DNA of 64,000 nt from Bigelowiella natans CCMP2755 (lineage: Eukaryota > Protista > Cercozoa). Shown piece after piece: positions 22,295-62,187 of this stretch. Each line of letters opens with the position of its first letter. Positions within the stretch are counted from its first letter, which is position 1. The notes under the pieces are model-generated. The model ran no database searches. It saw only the letters and a list, made by a program, of their open reading frames with translations, and was not told where the DNA came from. The position numbers and the translations under genes are program-made. Location: positions 62,001-126,000 of the forward strand of contig ADNK01002664.1 in the NCBI GenBank assembly GCA_000320545.1. Direction: 5' to 3'.

Positions 22295-23458
22295 TTCCGC
22301 CTCTACCCCCCCACTCTTTAATCTTGTTCGGTTCTTGTCTCATCTTACTGTTTTGGGTTTTATGGTGGCAGATGCAGCAGGAGACTGAAGAGGCTAAGAA
22401 AACAGTAGTAGCACTAGTAGTAGCAGTTGTAGTTGTTGTGTGTTGTAATTTATGGATGTGTGTTTTGTGTAAAGGTTGAAAGACAAATGAAGGAAATTGA
22501 GTCGTTAAAAAAAGAGCAAGATTCCAAGAACACTGTAATGACGAAGAATGATGCTGATGCATATGTTGTAGAAGGAGGAGGAGGAGGCCTCCTATCGTCA
22601 TTATAATCAGATTTATTTATTATCCTTCTCACTTGTTTTTTGTTATCCTTTAGGAGCAATCAGGTGCTGCTGAGGCGGAGATAAAACAGCTCAAAGACGA
22701 GATTACGAGACTGAAACAAGATGTTGCTGCAGGTCCTTTCGTGTAACTACAATTGCTACAACTACTACTTTTTACTCCTCGATTGTGCATCATCATCATC
22801 ATCATTAGCATCACATCCCCAGACTGTTGACAACTCTATTATTAAATAATTTCAACCATCATTCTTGTATAGGAACAACAACTGCTGCGAAGATCCCCCT
22901 TCCCCCATCTACGGGAACCATTCCTCTTCCGCCTTCGATGGGAGGAGTTATTCCCCCACCCCCCTCAATGGGAGGTATTCCCCCACCACCTTCAACGGAG
23001 GCATTCCCCCACCACCTTCAATGGGAGGCATTCCCCACCCCCCTCAATGGGAGGCATTCCCCCACCACCATCAATGGGAGGCATTCCCCCACCACCTTCA
23101 ATGGGAGGCATTCCCCCTCCCCCCTCAATGGGAGGTATTCCCCCACCACCTTCAATGGGAGGCATTCCAGCTCCTCCTGGAGGAATTGGCTTACCCCCTC
23201 CCCCAGGTATACATAATGTGTAAAGAGAGCGTGAGTGGTCACGACTACTTTTTAGAATATACTCATTGGGTACTGAGTATCATTCGTGTTCTTTGATAAG
23301 AAGACAAGGATAATACATTGTTATATATAGCAGCAATGTACTATTCCTGTTAGACAATTATGGCACTATCACTACTACTACTACTACTACTACTATTATC
23401 CCAAGATAGAGATACCAATACCTTCGCCCCCCTACCAATGTAATAATATACCATATAC

Positions 23459-30613: not shown

Positions 30614-30654
30614 ACAACATCTTAGATGCGCTATTTGTTAGTTGTCAAAGAGTA

Positions 30655-31960
30655 GCAGCAGTTGCACATCACAATGCAAAAACTGATTCTAGTCATCATC
30701 ATTGTTTTCGTTGGAAAAAAAAACGGACATTTTGGGTGCCGATGTTTTGGGTTTCGTGAAGTGTTGCAATGCAACACTGTCTAGCTGTGGCATTGCAGGC
30801 AATCTAGCAATGCTAGAATGGTGTCCTGGAAATTTTCAACTTTGGAACTGCACTGCACAGTCTGCAGTGTTGCGCAGCATTGTCAAACGCTAGCGCGCGG
30901 TGCTGAATGCACAACAAGTCCAGAAGTGTTGCTGAGCAATGTTGCCGCATCACGACATCATCGCTGCAGCATCGTGCTAGCGTGTTGCTGGGCTGGCAAT
31001 CTGAGGTTCTGACAGGCTAGCTAGCTAGCAGGACTCTGGCAAGTGCTTCCCGCAAGCTTGTCTGGTTGTTGAAGACGATGTGACTTCAGGAGGTCTAGAG
31101 GTTCACCTGGGAACAATGACGCGCGTCCCCCCTCTAGCTAGCTAGCCCTCTAGCTAGCTAGCCCTGCTGGCATGACTTGAACAATGAACAGAATAGACAC
31201 GTAATGTGAACGCGTTCGCATCACAAACATTCGGCGGTGCAACGTTTGAACCCAGACGTTGAACATCATGATTGGTGCAAAACAGCGCCAGACTAGCAGA
31301 GCGTGTGAGAACCACCAGCTGGCCAGCTAGCCAGACCACGCTGGCTAGCTGGCACATCCAGACGTGCTAGCTGTCTAGCGTGGGAGACGTGCAAGACGTG
31401 CACTTGCAAAGATCAGAGCCTGCAGGCAAAAAACATTGCGAAGACTGTTTGGCTGTGTGGCGCGCCAGGCCACAAGCAGTCTGGAAGGCTGGAAGGTCCA
31501 GAGCCAGAGGGGTGCCACTGGCGAACGTTCTGGCATTGAACATTGAACTTTGCAGCTTGTCATTTGACAAACAAATAAACCCAATGAAGAACTGCACTTC
31601 CAAAATGTTGCGTGACACTTGCAAAGTGCAAAACGCAGTGCCTCGAACCAGCTTTGGTGAAGGCTGACTCGATTGCCAAATCGATCCAAAATCTGCATCC
31701 GCAAGAACTACATGCATGAGAGACAAGCGTTTGTCACCTGCGACAATGCGAGGGATGTCGCATCCTCGAAATGCTGCATGTTGCAATGTGAAATAGCCGC
31801 CTGCCAGACCGTCCCAAATGAACGACATGCGACAATGACATGTTGGTGTGGACAGGCAAACAATGCCTACATTTGCGACCAGTGATGTCGCTGATGAAAG
31901 ATGATGTACGACAATGACATATTGGTGTTGTTGGGCAAATAACGCCTACATTTTCAAAAG
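30655..31960. other. TpA-depleted, CTAG-retaining intergenic island (degenerate repeat DNA)
   Basis: From ~30655 to ~31190 every TA read by eye lies within CTAG. Only a handful of other TAs occur up to 31900, about half of them in TAG/CTA. Contains a 53-nt direct repeat pair (31822-31874 / 31901-31953). Confidence 0.85.
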
Positions 31961-32221
31961 CAACGTGACCTTTTTCCAAATTGTGCTGCCTACCACTACC
32001 TCAAAACCCTTGTTCAAAATCTTCTTTGTGGCTGGAATCTTCGATTTCTGCCAGAAAAGCAAGCCGTCCCACTGTCTTTACCTGCGATCATCATCAACCA
32101 AAAAACTAATTGTGCTGCCATGTGCTGTCTCCTACACACACTCAACAAAAAACTGACTCGGATTCCTCACAAACCATTCGCCGCCGCGATCACTCCCCAC
32201 TAGAAACGCTACTTTGCAATA

Positions 32222-33681
32222 ATGAGAGAAATCCTTTCAGTTCACCTCGGCCAAGCAGGCATTCAGGTGAATGTTATATTTACTCATCTCGATTTTCTGT
32301 TCTTCATCGAAATTTTTGAGTGGAAATCTTTATACGAACAATTTCTACTTTCACTACTTAGGTTGGAAACAGTTGCTGGGAACTCTACTGTGTAGAGCAT
32401 GGTATCCAACCTGATGGAAAAATGCCAAGCGATAATTCGAAGGGGTCAGAGGATGATGCATTCAACACTTTCTTCTCTGAGACTAGTGCTGGAAGACATG
32501 TTCCTCGTGCAATCTTCCTTGATCTCGAGCCCAATGCCATAGATGAAATTCGTACTGGCGCCTACCGTCAACTATTCCACCCTGAGCAACTCATCAATGG
32601 TAAAGAAGATGCAGCTAATAACTATGCTCGTGGTCATTACACAATTGGAAAGGAGATTGTAGATTTGGCTCTTGACAGAATCCGCAAGTTAGCTGACAAC
32701 TGCACCGGACTTCAAGGGTTCCTTGTGTTTAATGCTGTTGGTGGAGGAACTGGGTCTGGGCTAGGATCTCTTCTTCTGGAGAGATTGTCTGTTGACTATG
32801 GAAAGAAATCTAAACTTGGTTTCAATATTTATCCATCCCCGCAAGTGTCTACAGCTGTAGTGGAGCCATATAACTGTGTTCTCTCTACCCATTCGCTTTT
32901 GGAGCATACCGACGTTGCTGTTATTCTGGATAATGAAGCCATTTATGATATCTGCCGTCGCTCTCTGGATGTAAATAGGCCAACTTACAACAATCTTAAC
33001 CGTCTAATTGCACAGGTCGTGTCATCACTGACAGCATCTCTACGATTTGATGGAGCTTTGAATGTCGATGTTACCGAGTTCCAAACTAATCTTGTTCCTT
33101 ACCCACGAATTCACTTCATGCTCAGTTCTTATGCTCCAATCATCACCAAAGCTAAATCCTCTCACGAGCAGCTTACTGTGGCTGAGATCACAAACAGTGC
33201 TTTTGAGCCAGCATCTATGATGGTAAAGTGCGACCCTCGTCATGGAAAATACATGGCGTGCTGTCTGATGTACAGAGGTGATGTCATTCCAAAGGACGTT
33301 AATGCAGCTGTTGCGCTTATTAAGACGAAGCGTACTATTCAATTTGTTGATTGGTCTCCAACCGGTTTCAAATGTGGGATTAACTACCAACCCCCCGCTG
33401 GAATTCCAGGTGCTGATCTTGCAGCGACCAAGAGAGCAGTTTGCATGATCTCAAACTCCACTGCCATTCAAGAGGTGTTCCACCGAATTGACTCAAAGTT
33501 TGATATGATGTATGCAAAACGTGCATTTGTACACTGGTACGTTGGAGAGGGCATGGAAGAAGGAGAATTCTCTGAAGCACGTGAGGATTTGGCAGCTCTG
33601 GAGAAGGATTACGAGGAGGTTGGAGTCGAGAGCCAGGATGGCGCTGAAGGGGAGGGCGAGGCTGAATATGATGAAGCTTGA
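32222..33681 (+). CDS. TUBA: Alpha-tubulin (divergent; 2 exons: 32222-32266, 32362-33681)
   Basis: [15 protein letters not shown]|[67 protein letters not shown] intron 32267-32361. Confidence 0.98.
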
Positions 33682-33712
33682 AGATAACACTATGAAGCTT
33701 GAAGATAACACT
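33671..33712 (+). repeat. Perfect 21-nt tandem duplication spanning the alpha-tubulin stop codon
   Basis: atgaagcttgaagataacact x2 (33671-33691, 33692-33712). Confidence 0.95.
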
Positions 33713-33929
33713 CACTCATGCGTATTGAGCTTGGAAGCAGAAACCGAGAATTAGTTTGCTAAGATTACGGCGGATCGCAAAAATTCACATCAAGAGTTTT
33801 TCCGAATGAGAATTAGTTGACTTTTTCAAAGTTTTTGAGCAGAATTAAGTTCTTTAACATGATCGTTGAGTCAACAGTGCCAATTGTTATTTTTTTCCAT
33901 GTAGACACATTTCATCCATCATTGTATTG

Positions 33930-35400
33930 CTAGATTGCTTTGTCGCCGCCTCCCTTGATCTGCATGTTCGGACATCACTTGGCATGTGCACAGATGCATG
34001 AGCCCATCACTGAGTGGGAGAATTAGTTTTAGAAATGTGGGCGAAGGATGATCGAATGAACATGGACAGGTTCTCAACATCAAAATGTTCGCTAGATGTG
34101 CGATGACGCCACCATCTAGCCATGTAGCGTGCTCGGAAGCCCAGATCTGTTCAGATCATGCCAGCATTCTGTCAACACATTCAGCTACCTCTAGAGCTCC
34201 AGAGCTAGCTAGCTAGCTAGAGTCTAGTGGTCACTGAAGTCGCAGCTGGCTAGCTCCAGAGCTAGCCTTGAGCACTGGAGCACATTCAACATTCGATGTG
34301 TCTAGCTAGCTAGCTAGCTCACCAAAACTAGCTAGAACACTCGCTAGACTCGATGTGTCCACTTCTAGACTTGCTAGCTTGCTTGTAGCTAAAAACATGC
34401 TAGCATGGATGACAAGATCCAGAGATGCAGCAGACTCTCTAGCTCTCCAGCTAGCCAGCTAGTGGCTAGCTCTAGAGCTAGCAGCTAGTCTTCTAGTCTG
34501 ATCACCATGCTGGCATGGCAGAGCGAGATGCTGCTGAAACAGTCTAGCAAGCTAGCTAGCAGTCAGTCTAGCTAGCTAGCTAGCTAGCAGCAGTCAGACA
34601 AACATGGAAATGCACAGTAGCTAGAGCTAGCCAGTCTAGCAGTAGTGCTATGGTGGAGCTAGCTAGCTAGGGAGCTAGATCTAGAGACGGGCAATTTCAT
34701 TCCTCCACCTCTAGCTAGCTAGACCTGACACTTTTGAAGGCTAGCTAGCTAGGCTGCTGCATTTGCTAGTTTGCTAGTTTGCGGATGTGCACAAGTCTAG
34801 AAGTCTAGAACTCTAGAAACAGCTGCTAGCAAATTCTGAACTAGCTCTAGCTAGTAGCTAGCTAGAGCAAGCGAGATGATGGTGACGATGATGACATCTC
34901 CAGATCTAGACATGACGATGATTTTTGTCATCAACTTTGGAACTCCTTCTTAATTTCAGGTGCACTACCAGACCATTGCAGTCAAGACAGTCTAGCTAGC
35001 TAGTCTAGATCAACAGTGTTATTTCTAGATCTCTAAATCTAGCTATGCTAGCATTTTAGAGCTCTTAGCTGTACATTTACTAGTTTAGCTCTAAACTAGT
35101 AAAGAGTGTCTAGAGCACCTACAGATCTAGAACGTATAAAGAGCGCTAGAGCTAGAGAGCATGAAACATGTATGGGTATCTCTCTACTAGCTAGCTCTAA
35201 CTAACTAATCCTGCTAGCCTGCTGCCTCAAGATTCTAAAATTACTCACCTCCATCACCACATCTAGATCTAGAGATGTCTGTAGATGTACAGATGTCTTA
35301 ATGTATTCTGCTGTTACTAGGTTACACTGTCAAGACTGTTACTTCTCTTATCACCATGCTATTCTGCTCAACACTGTAGCAAGTGTCTAGAGCGTTGTAG
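33930..35400. other. CTAG/GCTAGC-saturated, TpA-depleted intergenic island
   Basis: Dozens of CTAG, including (CTAG)n runs. Between ~33930 and ~34950 all other TAs seen are half-sites (TAG or CTA). The signal fades toward the RdRP stop. Confidence 0.85.
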
Positions 35401-35406
35401 CGCTAA

Positions 35407-38400
35407 CTAGCTTGTGTTGTGAACTTTGGCATGTTTACCTTGTTTCTTAATGTCCAATAGTACAACTTCTGCCATGTAAAATGGTATAATACCAAGAAGT
35501 TTTAGAATTCTAGCGGATAATATAGATAAACTAAAAGATTCTGATGAGGATATTGATTTTAGCTTGTTTTTGGACTTTTTCTCTTTTTCAAGAATCTCCG
35601 CCACCTTTTCCCTTAGTTCATTTGATTTTGCTAAATTTGTGATAATATCGAAGTCTGCCGTATACCAAATTTTGGCCTCCAACTCAAGTGCTTTGCGAAA
35701 TTCAATATTGAGTCCAGAGTATATATGTGAATGAATAAGATAGCAGTAGCATCCACAGGAGCTCTCGTGTATTACACAACAGCAAGTAGCAGCAGCAGCA
35801 GGGTCGTTGCTACTTTTATCTTCAAGGCTGCTACCCTCAAGAGGAAAACGATAACACTGTTTGTCAGTTGATTTACTATCTGTTCTGATATATTTTTTCT
35901 TACTTTTATTACCATTGCTGCTGTAACTTGCACTGCTACTTCGACTAGCACTACTGTTACTAATTCCAAGACCAACAGCAGATGATACGAAGTATCTTCT
36001 TAATTTGTTTATGTTTCCAATCCAGGATGGTGTCGTAGTAGCAGTTGAAGTTGAAGGAGTAGAAGCATTAGTTGTGTCCTTTTTCCTTCCAGTGATGGTA
36101 TTGGTAGAAGGTCCATTGTAATCATAATCATAGTCATCATCACCATCATCGTAACAATCATCATCTTTATCATGATGACGCTGAAGCCACGACTCCACAA
36201 GCTCCCTGATCTTAGCACATGCATGTTTATATCGATGCCTTATTTCTTCTGTTGCCGTCTTCAAGTCGATACTGAGGTCTTTGTCCTTTGGTTAAGTTTA
36301 TTTGGTTTTAAATATTCATTACTTTGCACCAGAAATAAATGAATATAGGAGTGACCAATAAGAGTAATAGTTGTCATATTTATCTCGTTTAGGAAAGATA
36401 AAGATAATGACGGTTGGCATATAACTATCCAAGATAAAGATGATGCCATCTATCCAAGATGATGATGGTGATGATGACGGTTGGCATATATCTATCCAAG
36501 ATGATGAAAGGTTAAAGATGATGATGATAGGCATACATCTATCGCAATTCCTCCCTTCCTCCCCTACCCCCGAACACTGTAGCAATGCCAATGCATCAGG
36601 CAATTCAGCCATAAACTATGAGTGCGACTATCACTACTACTGTTACCTTCGTGAAAGTGAAAGGGGGAGGGCTTCTTCGTAGTTCTTCAGCCTTTTCAAA
36701 TAAACGTCCTAAAATCCCCTGGATAATATTGATCGCATTTGTATAATACGCATTTTTGTGACTTCCCACGGCCCTGGTATTGGCTAGTGCTGCTATTATT
36801 GTTGCTATTCCTACTACTATTGCTACTGCTACTACTACCACTACTACGTCGTGTCATGATGTTATCCAATTAAACAACATACTTTGTCTTGGTAATAGGA
36901 GAAGTTTGAGGAATAACATATATTATTCGTCCCCCTCCTCCTCCTCCTCCTCCTCCTCCTCCTCCTCCTCTGTAGCATGAAATGTGGACGTTCTGGATAC
37001 GAATGGAAGACATCTTGCCTGAATGATGAGGTGATTCATTCAAATGATGATGATGATGATAATGATGATGGTGGTGGTGGTGGTGGGTGATGATTGATAC
37101 ACCGGTTGTTGTAGCAGTACAGTAGCAGTAGTAGTAGTAATGGGAGTTGTAGTAGTAGTAGTAGTAGGCTCTTACTCCTCCTCAATAAATCCTAGCCAGT
37201 AATTATTAGTTTTAGTGGAATGGTAATGAACAACCATGTGTCCGGAAGTCTAACATCATTCCCCGTTTTCTCTGCATCTAATGCTTGCTCAAATAACATG
37301 GCAGCCTGCAATGTGATTTCATGTCTTGGGCCTAATGAGCTGGCGAGTCTATGACAATGTACGGAGGAGGAGGAGGAAGAGGAAAAGAAGAAAGAGAGGG
37401 GAATCTAGTTTTAGTAAGACACTTTGCTTCTGCGTGGTAGTTTTGTTCTTGTTAGATGGAAGATAGCAACATCAAAAAGTAGGTTAATATGATGACATAA
37501 AATGATGATGTATAGCGCATTAATACACAATACTAATCAATCAGAGACAACTACTTTCCACCAACTAATGATATCAACACACACAACGCATCACTAAATC
37601 CAGAGGGAGGCGACATAAACGAGCAAAATCTGTGATCATTTATTCCTAGTAGTATCATTATCATAATCTAGAACTGCTTCTTCCAATCCTCCTCCTCCTC
37701 CTCCTCCTCCTCTACTTACTCGGTATGAAGATTTCCCAGTCGCCCCTTCCTCTCTTTCATTGTAGTCAGAGTATGAAGGAATGTGCATTTATTTGCATAC
37801 TCAATACAATCACGTTCCCTCTTCCATTTCTGATATTCTTTTCTTCTTCGCTTCCTCTTTATTACTTTGCTGCTTCCTTCTAATACCTCAACATCTTCCT
37901 CCTTGTTATCTATGATAATTCCCTTAGAATGCTGTACTACTGCTGCTATTTTTGGATCAATTAAGGTATGATCTCCTGTTTCTCTTTCTTCTTCTTCTTC
38001 TTCTTCTTCTTCTTCTGATTCTATTGTTGCTGTTACTTTCATAAGAGGTTGGGTTTGGTGTCTGTTCAGTTCGTAATCATGATCACTGGGAGGGGGGGGA
38101 GAACAACGATAGCGACAATCAGCAGAAGGGAAAGCAGCATGATTTTTGGCAGCAGTAAAATCAGCAACTGACCCTCCTTCTTCTTTGTCACGAGCTTTTT
38201 CCTTCTCCTCCTCTTTCTCCTCCCCTTCTTCTTCTTCTTCTTGACTACACTGATGATGATGCTTCTGCTGCTGGTGCTGGTGCTGCTCTTGTTCTCGTTT
38301 TAGCACCTGCTGCACGATTGTAGTGTTCCAGATGCAAAAAACCATATCACCATCGTAGTCGCCACCTGTTTCATCATACTAAGAGTAAGGATTCATATTT

Positions 38401-52920: not shown

Positions 52921-53759
52921 ATGCTACTGTAGGAGAACGGTCTAGGAATAGAAGGTCATCTTCATTGAAATCGTCATCATCTTTCTCAAGGATAAGAAAG
53001 GCGACTATATTTCCGGATTCTCTAACGTTTCCTATTGTGCTGAATAAGCTGACACGAGTACAAAAATCTTTTGATATAATCAACAACGCCAGAACTCGAT
53101 ACTTAGCTTTTAAGGTGATATTTTATTAACAGATATGTGGTGCTGTGTGACAATACAGCCATTGATATTCAGCATTACTACACCAGCCGACAATTATGAT
53201 AATGATTTAGGTCAAAACTAACGCATTAAATTCGCATCTTATTGATCCAAAAGTGGGTATTATATCGGCTGGCTCCAGCGTGAAAGTCAACGTTGTAGTG
53301 CAGGTATAGTTTATGATATCTGGTTCAGTTATGATAACTGTAATCACAGCACACATATACTGTACGTACACATCAACGAATGCCCGTATAAAGCAATATT
53401 GATAGTATAGTAGCAATATATTGTGTTTTCATTGTTATTTTAAGTTTCACCTTATATCATGTGTATTGTCGTTACTACCTCCAGGGATCATTCACAAATC
53501 CAGTCTGCAACCACATAGTCCTTATAAGACTTGTTCACGCAAAAGAGGCAGATGTCAGACAATATACAATCCCAGAATTATTTCGGCATAAAAGTGCCCA
53601 CGTTTCAGACAAGAAGATGAAGTGCTTTTGGTCTTTATCTCCCGCAGCAACACCGTCTACTGTTGCATCATCACCGTCACATGATGTAGACAAAGATGAC
53701 ATCAAGCACTAATGTGTTGCAGCCAACTGTGTAATGTGTTTTAACTTGCCACAGAGCAA

Positions 53760-54857
53760 AATGATGGATGCCATGCTAGCATGTTGCAACATGCACAATG
53801 CTAGAATGTGGGTTCAACATTTCATGCACTTGTTGCTTCCGCTGAAATGTGAATAAAACATAGGCATGTTTCAGTCATTGACCGTTAGTTTTGCTAGATT
53901 GCCACAATGGCATGATCATGTTTGTGTGCATCTAGATGTCGTCGTAGCAAGTGACAAATGCAGTGAACGTGATGAAACACACATGCATGTCTAGATGTGG
54001 CCAGATGGCGCTAGATGCTGATCACAGACGACACAGCAACATGATCATGATGTTTGTGTCCTTTGCCTCAATGTTTGCCTTCACATCATTTTGGAAATGC
54101 AGTCTAGCAGTTTGTCATCATCATTCTAGCATTGTTCATTGTTCATTGTTCATTGTCAACCAACAAGGCACTTCGCGATTTCCGCAGTGACCATTTGCAT
54201 TTGTGCAACCTGGCAACCCAGCTAGCCAGCATCAACGTGACGGGGTGTCACCTGATTGCAAAACAACCACACACTTTGCTTCAAAAATTCGATGCATTGA
54301 CAATCATGAATGTCACTTTTCAAACAGCAACGAAGTGATCTCTGGGTGTTCCAGTGTTGCTGGTGTTGCGTGGTCATGACTCACCATCACAACCACGTCC
54401 TCTGGTCCTCAGTCGTGGAAAGCGACTCCACTTCGTTTCGTTGAACAAAAGTGCTGCGCACTCAATGCAAATGCACATGGCAATTGCACGTTGTCAATGA
54501 ACACGTTTGAAACAACTCTGACTGGCTGCTTCCATTCACTTGTTTCCGATGACAAAGTCGTGACCCACCCCACAGCACCACACAAACTGCTGCTGTTCTT
54601 GCTGAACGTTGACCCAACACAACCATGAATCAATGATCAATCGCCAACCAGAGGTGACTTTTGCCTCAACATTTGCTTTTTCCTCAATCAAACGCTTCAG
54701 ACGGGGAATGTCGTTGTGTGAGTTGCCATGCACTGCTTCGAAGATGTTGGACATCGTTGTTTCAGCGATGGTGGTGGACGGCACCACAATGCGACAATTG
54801 GAACAGTTTCCATCATTTGAAACACAGAAATGCATTTCCTTGTCGCAGAACCAAATT
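53760..54857. other. TpA-free island containing the ankyrin pseudogene
   Basis: 53947-54857 has five TAs by eye, all in CTAG, and 54225-54857 has none. CpG is still common. Confidence 0.9.
54040..54754 (-). pseudogene. Ankyrin-repeat gene remnant
   Basis: Minus-strand fragments MSNIFEAVHGNSHNDIPRLKRLIEEKANVEAK (ATG 54754), GDTP..LMLASW, AEIAKCLV and NDVKANIEAKDTN match the ankyrin consensus (G-TPL--A---GH-EIV--LL--GA-V-AKD). Frames are broken and no TA-containing codon remains outside CTAG. Confidence 0.75.
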
Positions 54858-55400
54858 TATCGACGATTTTTCTAAACGTTTTTTTCCTGATACACCTGCC
54901 CCGAGCGCCCACAAGCATTCGTGGTTCATTGCGAAATTTCCATTGGATTCAAATTCGGCCGAATGAATGCTCGGCTCAATGGGAGGCAGAAGAATTTGTA
55001 CGAACTCGTGAGATTCTCAGAAGCACCAAAATTGTCCCACAAAAAAAAAGCCAAACAGAGTCTGCAAAACACATGAGACGCACCATTTTCCTTGACGCAC
55101 CTGATGAGACGGAGATAGCGACATTCGGCATAGCGGCCGTCGTGCTCTCCTGGTTGCATTGAAGTGACTGGAAGCACACAGAGAAGATAGAACAAAAGAA
55201 GGCACTGACAGACGCTACAACAAAAGAAGCCTCGACTGTGCCAAAAGTTGTGCAGGTCAAGCTCTTCCTCGTAAAGAACTCGTAAAAAGGCGTGTACACA
55301 TCAGTATCTGCTGCACACCGGTCCTGCTGTTTGAGCTTCTCACAACTACCAAATCGAATGAGTAGACAAGGGAGGAGCAGATCTCTGATATATACTATCA

Positions 55401-57641
55401 ATGCCTAACAAAACATGGTCACATCATTTTGTGATTACCTTCTTGACGGTAGCTGCTTTGATGTCGCAATACCATAATTTGGAGGAACAACCTGCTGCTA
55501 GGAATGTGACGACGTATTCATCCCATCTCTCCTCTTCGGTTGAATGCAAACACCAGCGAAGTAGACACAGTCTAGGAAATCTTCACGAAAGGGTTTCTAC
55601 TGCACATACTGCAGCGACATCATCACCCGAAGCATCATTTAGACAACAACACCACATGTTGAAGAAAGATAGAAAAAGGGGGAAAAAGAAAAAGAGGAAG
55701 AAAAAGAAACGTGTATCACAGAAGAGGAAGGCATACAGATCAGACAAACTTCATTCTCAACAGGAACAGGAACAGCAACAGCATCAACGAATGAGACTGC
55801 ACCGGATTGAACAGGGCAAAGTATGTAACAATGAAGATGATTCTTGCAAAGATTACTCCTTCGGAGAGGCAAATGAGTTGCTGTTACCCAAACTAGATCA
55901 TGATGATGATGATGATGATGAGAGGTTAATTGAGACTGAAGCAGAAGAAAATGCTTTTGGCGGTGGTGACAAGTTCCGAGGATTACCTCCTCCTCCTCCT
56001 ACATTAGGAAGACTGAAGCAGATGCTGGATATAGAGGAGGCCGTTAACTTCTCCCAAATAGATGACGATGACGACGACGATGACGACGACAATGACGATG
56101 ACCACGACTCATCCAATTACTCAAAGCATTATAAAACAGATGCCACAAAAATATTTGGCAGTGAGAAACAGATGGCTACAAAAGCGATGAAGAGTGGTAT
56201 GCCTACTCCTACGACAAATCTACTACTATCTGATATCGGTGTGCAAGGAAGGCCACCCGTTGCTCATCCTCCTCCTCCTTTTCGTTTTGCTCCTCAATTT
56301 CTTGAAAGCAGTACTACTGCTTTCCAAGAGGATGATATGGTGATTAACGTAAAAGATCTCGAGGGGCTATTGTTTCCCGAACATGACAATATGACGCTGA
56401 ATGATAGACAAATATTAGCACGGCAGCTGATGGGAGGATTAGGAGGAGGAGGAGGAGATATTGATAAGGCCCACCTTAACAAGCTTCAAATGGTAAGAAA
56501 TAAGATGCACTTCTACTCACTACCCTCACTAATTCGTATTGTGTGTTATTATTATTATCGACGTATCCGTGGAAGATATTTGTGACAACCAAATTGAAGT
56601 GAATCCCTTCATGCAGTGATGAGAGTACTAAGGATATTAAACATGTTCTTTCTCCTTATTTTTTACTGCTACGAGTGCACCAAGGTTATGATTAAAGAGT
56701 ATTATACGAATGATTCTGTCGTATTATGCGGTATTAAATGTGAATGTAGGAAAGTATGCAAAGTCTCATGAAACTTTCCAAAACCATCATTAATGCAACA
56801 TTTCAAGGTAGAAGAACTTCGCTAATTTGAGAATTATTTGCCACCATAATCTTCATCATCGTCGTTGTTGTCATCATAATCATTGTTATGACGATTATTA
56901 AAAACCTGCAGGCTGGCATCAATGGCACAACACATCAAAAAAGGTAGTAGAAGATGGAACTTATTTTGTAGAAGAACAAACCACCATCTTTTATGCATAT
57001 ACATTTACATATGCAACTTATATTTTAATCCTTCACGCAATACATTCTGAAATTGCTTTTTTTCATACGATTAATATTATCATTCTTAGTTTGAAAAGAA
57101 TTTAATCCGGAAAATGATGGCAAATTGGGGCGACGTTGGTTGTAACGGTTTGTTGACTCTTCTTCTTCTTCAGTGTTATCATCTATCATACTTCCAATCG
57201 ATTCATTTTGACTTATTCAGTGTTATCTATCATCATATCTCCAATTGATTTATTTTGTCTTAATACTCTCCCAAAGCACTCAGCCTTTCAAATTCTACTG
57301 CATCATCATCATCATCATCATCGTTACCATTTCCAACGAGAAACCAAACGTTGCATACTCTCAAAGTACTGCTGCATCATCAAGTGTAGTAGAACATTAT
57401 TAGAAGAAATAGCTATAGCCAAGGCACTAATAGCAAAAGTAGTAATTTGGAGGCCTAGATTAAATGATATTATATTTTTAAAATATATTAGAAATGAGGA
57501 TGTGTACATAATTTAAATACGAAAACCATCTTCGTGATGAGATTAGACTTGGTTGTTGTTACATACACACCTGCATTGATAGCACAAGTATAATACACCA
57601 TTAGAGTACAGTTAGAAATGTAGCTTGTGGATTGGTAATAA

Positions 57642-60829: not shown

Positions 60830-61470
60830 GTGATGAGCAGGTAGAGCGAAATCTGCCGTGCGAGAACATTCAGATGCATGATGTTCCTCCTCCTTCTCAT
60901 CTAATTGTGTGACGCAATTGAGCGTGTGAGCTGCATTTGCATGCCGCTATGCCATCATCTTGCACATGCTAGCATGTTGCATGTGTTTTCCAACTGACTT
61001 CGATGTGTCGCAAGTCAACATTTTTGATTTTTTCGATTCCACCTTCAAATCGAGCAACAAACAGCGCAGCGTCAAAACAGGCATTTTTGGCAATTGCTTC
61101 ATCGTGGGTTTTCGAATTTTGACACCCTTACAACGGTTGTGTTCAGGTTGCATGCTAGCATGCTGCCTTTGTTCGTTGCCTTGTCACAAGTTTGTATGCA
61201 ATGCTTGGCAATTTTGATTTGACACCAGTGACACGAGAGAATGGAAGGAAACCAAGATGTTTCAGCTGCACGCAACTCTTGTCAAGTCCTTGGACCATTT
61301 TTCTTCAAAATCAGACAAGGCAGCAGTTTCAATTCTTTCATGGTGATTTTCGAGATCTTTCTCATGTTGTTGTGTCCACAGTGAAATCCAATCTTTGGCC
61401 AATGAATTGGGCCACCATGCTAGCTAGCTAGCATGCCTTCCAAAAGGTTCAAAAAACGATTTTTCGTCGG
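60830..61470. other. TpA-depleted intergenic island
   Basis: ~61200-61420 has no TA. The remaining TAs are mostly CTAG or CTA/TAG half-sites. CA/TG-rich. Confidence 0.75.
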
Positions 61471-62187
61471 TGACATACACACAAAAAGGTGTAGAAGTCT
61501 TTCGTAGAACTCAATTCACATTTGGCGCCACGGCTTAGCATGAGCTACGATACAAGCTGCAAGATGCTGCTGGACACCCAGACCCAGTCTGATATACTGA
61601 CCAATTTTTATATTTTGACTATGTGACCAGCAGGTGTGCGTGCTGTTTTTGCAGTGTTCTAGCATTGTTGTCTGTCATCATTATTACCGCTGCACAGCAT
61701 GTGACAGGCTTAGCAGACTTAGCGTATATGCACGTGCAAACAATGCGCTGTGGGATGACCATTGAAAAAATTTAAACATTTCATTACACCCGTCTTGCAA
61801 TCCGCTGTGTAGGCATGTGATGTATCATACACAATATAATAACGCTAGCGCGTATTAATTGTACCCCATGTGATAATACGTGATAATAACCCTACAATAC
61901 TCAAATCGGCACATCATCACATAATCAACAAATCTATGGCGTTCTAAATCAACATTGCATGCACACATTTGGATGGGGTGTGCTTCTGTATGCTATTTTC
62001 CCACATCATTTCGCCATATCAGTTGCCGCAACTGGCTTTCATCAATACTCCTTCTCATTCGGTTTTTGACATTATGTGATGACTATTCTACAAGGCTCTA
62101 CTGCTGCTGCTGCTGCTGCTGCTGCTAATGGTAGACGCCTGTTTGTCATTACGTCCACATTCTTCCTCTTGCTATTTCCTGATCCAA

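Follow-up and report, generated by a model that had tools for sequence, protein, structure and literature searches.

In the 64,000-nucleotide stretch of Bigelowiella natans DNA analyzed here (the window), a patch at positions 53947–54857 is probably the saturated footprint of the TpA hypermutation of this organism on dead, repeat-derived DNA, in which the tetranucleotide CTAG lingers, probably because an A standing before G is hit far more slowly. The basic TA signature is already known; what is added here is a small, apparently non-viral target and the CTAG exception. The patch could not be aligned to any unmutated copy, and the direction of change rests on its composition, on the preprint of Mettrop et al. 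(2026), and on one site in a paralog.

Results

TA Depletion in the Patch

The original prediction described about 910 nt devoid of TpA except within CTAG. A recount of positions 53947–54857 (911 nt; A 243, C 230, G 190, T 248) bears this out: there are five TA, all within CTAG, and the five CTAG coordinates given by the prediction are exactly those of the C, with TA at 53992, 54012, 54105, 54127, and 54223. With a GC content of 46%, the patch is indeed not GC-rich and tens of TA were rightly expected, namely 66 from local composition or 72 at the window rate. The Poisson probability of finding zero non-CTAG TA across 911 nt is about 1e−31, and the chance that all five TA would fall in CTAG at its background share is 2e−8. 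No TA follows the last CTAG until 54858, which leaves positions 54225–54857 (633 nt) without any TpA, as had also been claimed. The second-longest TA-free gap within the window is 224 nt. If TA within CTAG is disregarded, the longest TA-free run in the window measures 913 nt (from 53945 to 54858), and the next longest (541, 374, and 281 nt) all lie inside similar patches. Of the four non-CTAG TA that survive closest upstream (53945, 53886, 53861, and 53854), three are TAG half-sites, again as predicted, and the fourth is a full site. Elsewhere in the window, a proline-rich coding unit of 27 nt is repeated in tandem 8.2 times at 22950–23168, which accounts for one of the lesser TA-free gaps.

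The observed/expected ratios of dinucleotides in the patch are 0.08 for TA, 1.90 for TG, 1.86 for CA, and 0.67 for CG. Compared with two background stretches, TA falls to 5.5 per kb (80–89 in the background), CA+TG rises to 233 per kb (134–144), and GC rises from 39–40% to 46%. The loss of 74–83 TA per kb is therefore matched by a gain of 89–99 CA+TG per kb and of 6–7 points of GC, the expected outcome of converting each TA to TG or CA. CpG decay, which the prediction had discounted, can be ruled out as the cause, since the CG ratio in the patch is close to that of the whole window (0.67 vs 0.66) and CpG shows no extra depletion.

Neither AA (1.13) nor TT (1.20) is depleted, which indicates that the target is TpA and not every A that follows A or T. 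This bears on the nature of the mutator. Polymerase eta makes A-to-G errors at WA, and the same footprint would be left by error-prone synthesis of this type or by lesions at the T of TpA, because an A-to-G change on one strand is indistinguishable in sequence from T-to-C on the other. Undepleted AA and TT speak against such a source. So does the published observation that all hypermutations fall on TpA, which is stricter than WA (Mettrop et al., 2026), although in that work a deaminase is itself a candidate only. Our literature search, in the text accessible to it, yielded nothing usable on the sequence context of polymerase eta, and we regard a polymerase or damage origin as very improbable.

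The patch is, as far as this is testable, not an assembly slip. Sampled words from the locus were all present in 14 of the 24 listed sequencing runs, and a single contig from run X7, a run of the kind that may be the source of this DNA and not independent of it, covers positions 53300–55500 with zero differences. Comparison of the same positions with runs X3 and X7 gave no letter differences, in a region where almost no TA target is left.

Edges and Neighboring Genes

The window is chlorarachniophyte nuclear DNA: the best non-self matches of a Rieske protein encoded at 1549–2292 are an MMETSP transcript (78%), Partenskyella (82%), and Amorphochlora (67%), all from chlorarachniophytes. Upstream of the patch lies an expressed host gene (53130–53963, plus strand) with a GT..AG intron at about 53304–53484, whose last exon and 3′ UTR occupy positions 53485–53963. 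A contig of run X15, which we only guess to be RNA, matches 53482–53963 with zero differences and its loose end matches the upstream exon; RNA reads of run X21 lie on the plus strand over the last exon and 3′ UTR. The exon before the last gives a weak match to the MSP (Motile_Sperm) domain (E 1e−4), under the curated cut-off of Pfam.

The upstream edge of the patch is graded. Between 53600 and 53946, non-CTAG TA drops from 7–14 to 1–3 per 100 nt while CA+TG rises, and this edge takes in the 3′ UTR, where CA+TG reaches 2.06 times expectation, along with the end of the last exon. Since the drop in TA starts at about 53600, within the last exon and 3′ UTR, the footprint fades into a working gene. 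On the downstream side (54858–55132), TA is still low and CA+TG is back to normal, and the next transcript piece begins at about 55133. Within the patch, positions 54188–54631 have zero depth in X21, a single raw RNA run sampled at about 6 in 100.

Origin of the DNA in the Patch

Two remnants of an ankyrin-repeat gene lie in the patch on the minus strand. The first, at 54754–54623, represents the start of the dead gene: it is closest in sequence to the N-terminus of P0125 (60% identity over 45 columns, tblastn), five of its six phmmer matches among 1.84 billion proteins are Pfam ankyrin proteins (E 8e−5), and an atlas comparison gave 0.93 to ankyrin clusters. The second, downstream at 54090–54055, was found by tblastn; with an ankyrin profile, the score of each of the two segments was matched by none of 300 shuffles. 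A candidate second ankyrin exon at 54577–54548 was dropped, because 126 of 300 shuffles reach its score. The two pieces are short and in different frames with stops between them; the remnant is dead, and an intact, expressed ankyrin gene is not present here. A Pfam search of six frames of the TA-free core gave sub-threshold matches only, none of them to ankyrin, and a word-indexed homolog search with a 106-aa frame confirmed none of 36 candidates.

The ankyrin family is multi-copy in the host, as indicated by the five to six paralogous contigs listed per DNA run that match 54664–54716 with six to eight differences. Where the loose ends of X15 diverge from those of the DNA runs there is a GT, a point that would fit a spliced, expressed ankyrin paralog. 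At just one site, a TA in the loose end of the paralog stands opposite a CA of the window. A metagenome scan for ankyrin paralog DNA gave 594 pattern matches and no confirmed one, and the P0125/ankyrin family had no viral relative in the IMG/VR viral contigs.

The second component is a fragment of a high-copy dispersed repeat at 54086–54156 (plus strand), consisting of a 19-nt core and, after it, a 7-nt unit repeated about four times. The core, a motif first noticed by eye, is identical at 16 of 19 positions to a copy at 31589, a match reached by none of 500 shuffles, and was found in two of the five patches of the window but not in the other three. At 31567–31668 the repeat is about 100 nt long and forms hairpins, its RNA in X21 is confined to the minus strand, and related copies have a 7-nt tandem unit adjoining. 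Up to 69–70 contigs stack on the 31589 region, over 100 times the single-contig depth, a summed depth that is not a copy number. Our guess, from this layout, is that the repeat, with its hairpin and tandem tail, could have come from the end of a short retro-element. Rfam gave no matches anywhere in the 64-kb window, this repeat included, and the core had none in viral contigs. Two metagenome matches to the core pattern (L001 and L002) lack the TA signature and were taken as chance. At 80% identity, most of the patch has a single copy.

Sister Patches

Four weaker sister patches were delimited in the window, at about 1–1250, 30653–31800, 33900–35000, and 60880–61480. The first is only partly converted. 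The second lies upstream of an alpha-tubulin copy and contains both the repeat at 31567–31668 and a five-unit run of CCAG, CTGG, and CTAG at 31315; the third lies downstream of the same tubulin copy and is very rich in CTAG arrays. A Pfam search of 24 frames of the four patches found no matches.

These data weigh on the view that no targeted mutation took place, that is, that foreign or low-complexity DNA was TA-poor from the outset or that the patch is a product of CpG decay or assembly. The patch has no alignable unmutated ancestor, and local coding DNA is mildly TA-poor (rho 0.56–0.69), as such a view would have it. It would nevertheless have to accommodate zero non-CTAG TA in 911 nt of 54% AT DNA (p about 1e−31), four sister patches of different content, graded edges that reach into a host 3′ UTR, normal CpG, identical contigs in the sequencing runs, and a process experimentally shown in the same algal class (Mettrop et al., 2026). 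We consider it hardly credible.

The alpha-tubulin copy (32222–33681, plus strand) is intact by Pfam and stands between two hypermutated patches with a TA rho of 0.62, the ordinary coding level. It is nearly silent in RNA run X21, and the X21 reads at 33389–33720 carry many differences and seem to derive from a paralog; it is possibly a stage-specific gene spared through selection amid silenced DNA. At 34000–35300, CTAG reaches up to 64 per kb as short tandem arrays, and similar arrays occur in many other contigs. A 45-nt direct repeat (84% alike, 79 nt apart) occupies 31830–31953 at the edge of the second patch, and a common 43-nt segment is found in inverted orientation (84%) at 10–52 and 61753–61795 in two partly converted patches, perhaps another small repeat family.

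Survival of CTAG and Half-Sites

We compared the survival of full sites, TAG/CTA half-sites, and CTAG with microsatellites masked; the zones were drawn by eye after the counts had been seen, survivor numbers are small, and the ancestral composition is unknown. Relative to background, survival in the three other cores was 0.052 for full sites (7 survivors) and 0.24 for half-sites (18; Fisher p 2.6e−4 between the two), and CTAG stood at 8.8-fold (55). In six partial zones the values were 0.56, 0.76, and 5.8 (p 0.063), and across all zones CTAG was 6.5-fold over background. In both sets the square of half-site survival is close to full-site survival, which fits separate hits on each strand with A before G being slow.

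A per-strand fit over nine zones, leaving out 53947–54857 itself, which has no survivors, gave a relative rate before G of 0.0 (CI 0–0.3, p 1e−5). Without the CTAG-rich patch the rate was 0.16 (0–0.7, p 0.006), and without the CTAG-rich and the first patches it was 0.23 (0–0.85, p 0.02). Masking the surroundings of CTAG left the fitted rates similar.

CTAG is slow but not immune. Among 206 non-CTAG neighbors in phase with CTAG, 11 are CCAG or CTGG vs 1.9 expected and one corresponds to the C-to-T route, while off-phase offsets give 0–4 of 286 vs 12. Converted units make up 13 of 75 array units, and an example from the patch under study is the in-phase run CCAG-CTAG-CCAG at 54218–54229, which would be a CTAG array with two units converted. 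Strict immunity of CTAG is thus ruled out. It should be noted that CATG (11 vs 2.4 expected) and CAAG/CTTG (8 vs 1.9) are also enriched in phase beside CTAG (30653–35500 and 1–1250), so that the array ancestry of CCAG/CTGG is not proven; this excess could reflect A-to-T changes via repair of deaminated bases, or converted TA-rich microsatellites.

The product spectrum gives a different picture. In the four cores, the share of CA with a preceding C is 0.189, against 0.120 ± 0.018 simulated under the strand rule and 0.188 ± 0.017 if only the palindrome is protected. DCAG/CTGH occur at 30 per kb, with 49 expected under the strand rule and 34 under palindrome-only protection. CCAH/DTGG alone side with the strand rule (24.6, vs 22 and 36). 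Palindrome-only protection is therefore favored on two of the three measures, a real disagreement with the survival data. As the ancestral composition is unknown, the test is soft, yet it keeps both competing accounts of CTAG alive.

One of these accounts retains the same hypermutation and supposes that CTAG is shielded as a whole palindrome, by a methyl mark or a bound protein, with half-sites being ordinary targets. The 6.5-fold excess of CTAG and the two concordant product measures are what it calls for; in each of the six fits, nevertheless, survival is higher for half-sites than for full sites (p 1e−5 to 0.02), CTAG arrays still become CCAG and CTGG, and the literature search found no CTAG-specific modification for B. 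natans. In its accessible part, a study of chlorarachniophyte viruses (10.1101/2025.11.19.688996) does not have CTAG among the methylation motifs. We think shielding of the palindrome unlikely.

The other account holds that all TpA are hit alike and that TAG and CTAG are constantly remade by C-to-T decay of methylated CAG and CCAG within the same silenced DNA, together with slippage of CTAG arrays, so that the survivors are young. It would jointly explain why half-sites and CCA are in excess and why DCAG is deficient, and is in line with the abundance of CCAG/CTGG (13.6 vs 3.8 per kb in the background) and, in small numbers, with the absence of CCGG from all four cores (1.0 per kb in the background). 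This account, however, needs a C-to-T rate near that of the hypermutation, whereas A-to-G/T-to-C made up 210 of 211 and 20 of 20 of the reported changes (Mettrop et al., 2026). CpG is also not further depleted, and the mixed CCAG and CTGG units of the in-phase run at 31315 derive most simply from a CTAG ancestor. Regeneration of the sites is, in our judgment, improbable, slightly more so than shielding.

The original prediction implied a signature that is directed at TA and spares the TAG context. Its focus on TA is borne out by the mass balance, and the sparing is upheld by the half-site trend in the other patches; what does not hold is absolute protection, as CTAG is slowed only and a strict block at TAG is at odds with the product spectrum. 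On balance, we lean toward the rule that a 3′ G slows the reaction and so preserves CTAG.

Discussion

Hypermutation of TpA to TpG or CpA in B. natans was described by Mettrop et al. in a 2026 preprint (bioRxiv 10.64898/2026.01.13.699255). In mutation-accumulation lines, two integrated viral regions mutated about 1000 times faster, de novo changes in the hypermutable regions were A-to-G/T-to-C in the proportions given above, and all hypermutations were on TpA. The authors also reported 324 CDS with almost no TpA, as well as depleted 1-kb windows that form 124 clusters and are enriched in transposon domains, and proposed the deaminase ADAT2 as the candidate mutator, a proposal only.

Our patch appears to share with this process the dinucleotide and the products on both strands, and it comes from the same algal class. 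The active regions of the preprint are viral inserts of 186 kb and 25 kb that are far from saturated, whereas here a saturated 1-kb intergenic patch contains pieces of an ankyrin pseudogene and a repeat fragment, and no viral genes were found in it. By the cut-offs of the preprint for 1-kb windows (rho TpA ≤ 0.43, rho CpA+TpG ≥ 1.52), positions 54001–55000 qualify on both counts, with values of 0.11 and 1.73. They are the only one of 64 fixed windows to do so, and as a cluster is defined there by at least three consecutive windows, the patch is not a cluster under that rule, which is not itself a requirement of the process. The main text of the preprint contains nothing on CTAG, TAG, trinucleotides, or 3′ context, and our literature search found no paper linking B. 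natans with CTAG and no other case of TpA loss with CTAG survival.

The patch resembles the product of fungal RIP in its local, near-saturating transitions, its repeated and dead DNA, its dinucleotide motif, and its spread into flanks. The chemistry is opposite: RIP changes C to T, creating TpA and lowering GC, whereas here TpA is removed (TA 0.08, CA 1.86) and GC goes up. Because the patch is mostly single-copy at 80% identity, present-day pairing between homologs as in RIP is not evident.

The A-to-I chemistry of the adenine deaminases ADAR, TadA, and ADAT2 also results in A-to-G. According to the accessible text of one source (PMC10661471), ADAR prefers U before A, which is comparable to the T here, and its best site is UAG, while TadA and ADAT2 are listed with ACG. 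These enzymes act on RNA, whereas the change in the patch is fixed in genomic DNA, and the site that ADAR favors corresponds to the slowest context in the patches; with TAG contexts surviving best, an ADAR-like preference does not fit.

We propose that, on either strand, the A of TpA would become G, with adenine deamination as the most likely route, at a rate that appears to be set by the base 3′ of the A and to be lowest for G, at about 0–0.25 of the rate before A. CTAG presents this slow context on both strands and would survive longest, accumulate, and change slowly to CCAG or CTGG; a CTAG array would be the sole TA-bearing microsatellite expected to last under such a rule. Targeting seems to track silenced repeat DNA and may spread over a few hundred bases, halting where selection or active chromatin resists.

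As a more tentative extension, which we put forward as possible but doubtful, chlorarachniophytes may possess a genome defense that is the inverse of RIP. It would employ a DNA adenine deaminase with a TA-not-G motif, opposite to that of ADAR, which would nucleate on dispersed repeats and host pseudogenes besides viruses, saturate kilobase patches, and leak into the 3′ ends of active genes; CTAG arrays would then mark past silencing across the genome and serve as its clock.

As a fingerprint, a 3′-base rule would have to be reproduced in vitro with any candidate enzyme, and it speaks against a preference like that of ADAR. Such patches mask the origin of old insertions and push GC up, and the CTAG-only rule offers a way to map them. 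The target of hypermutation in B. natans would be widened, from integrated viruses to silenced repeat DNA generally, by small saturated patches that lie on a host pseudogene and a repeat fragment and extend into the 3′ UTR of an expressed gene.
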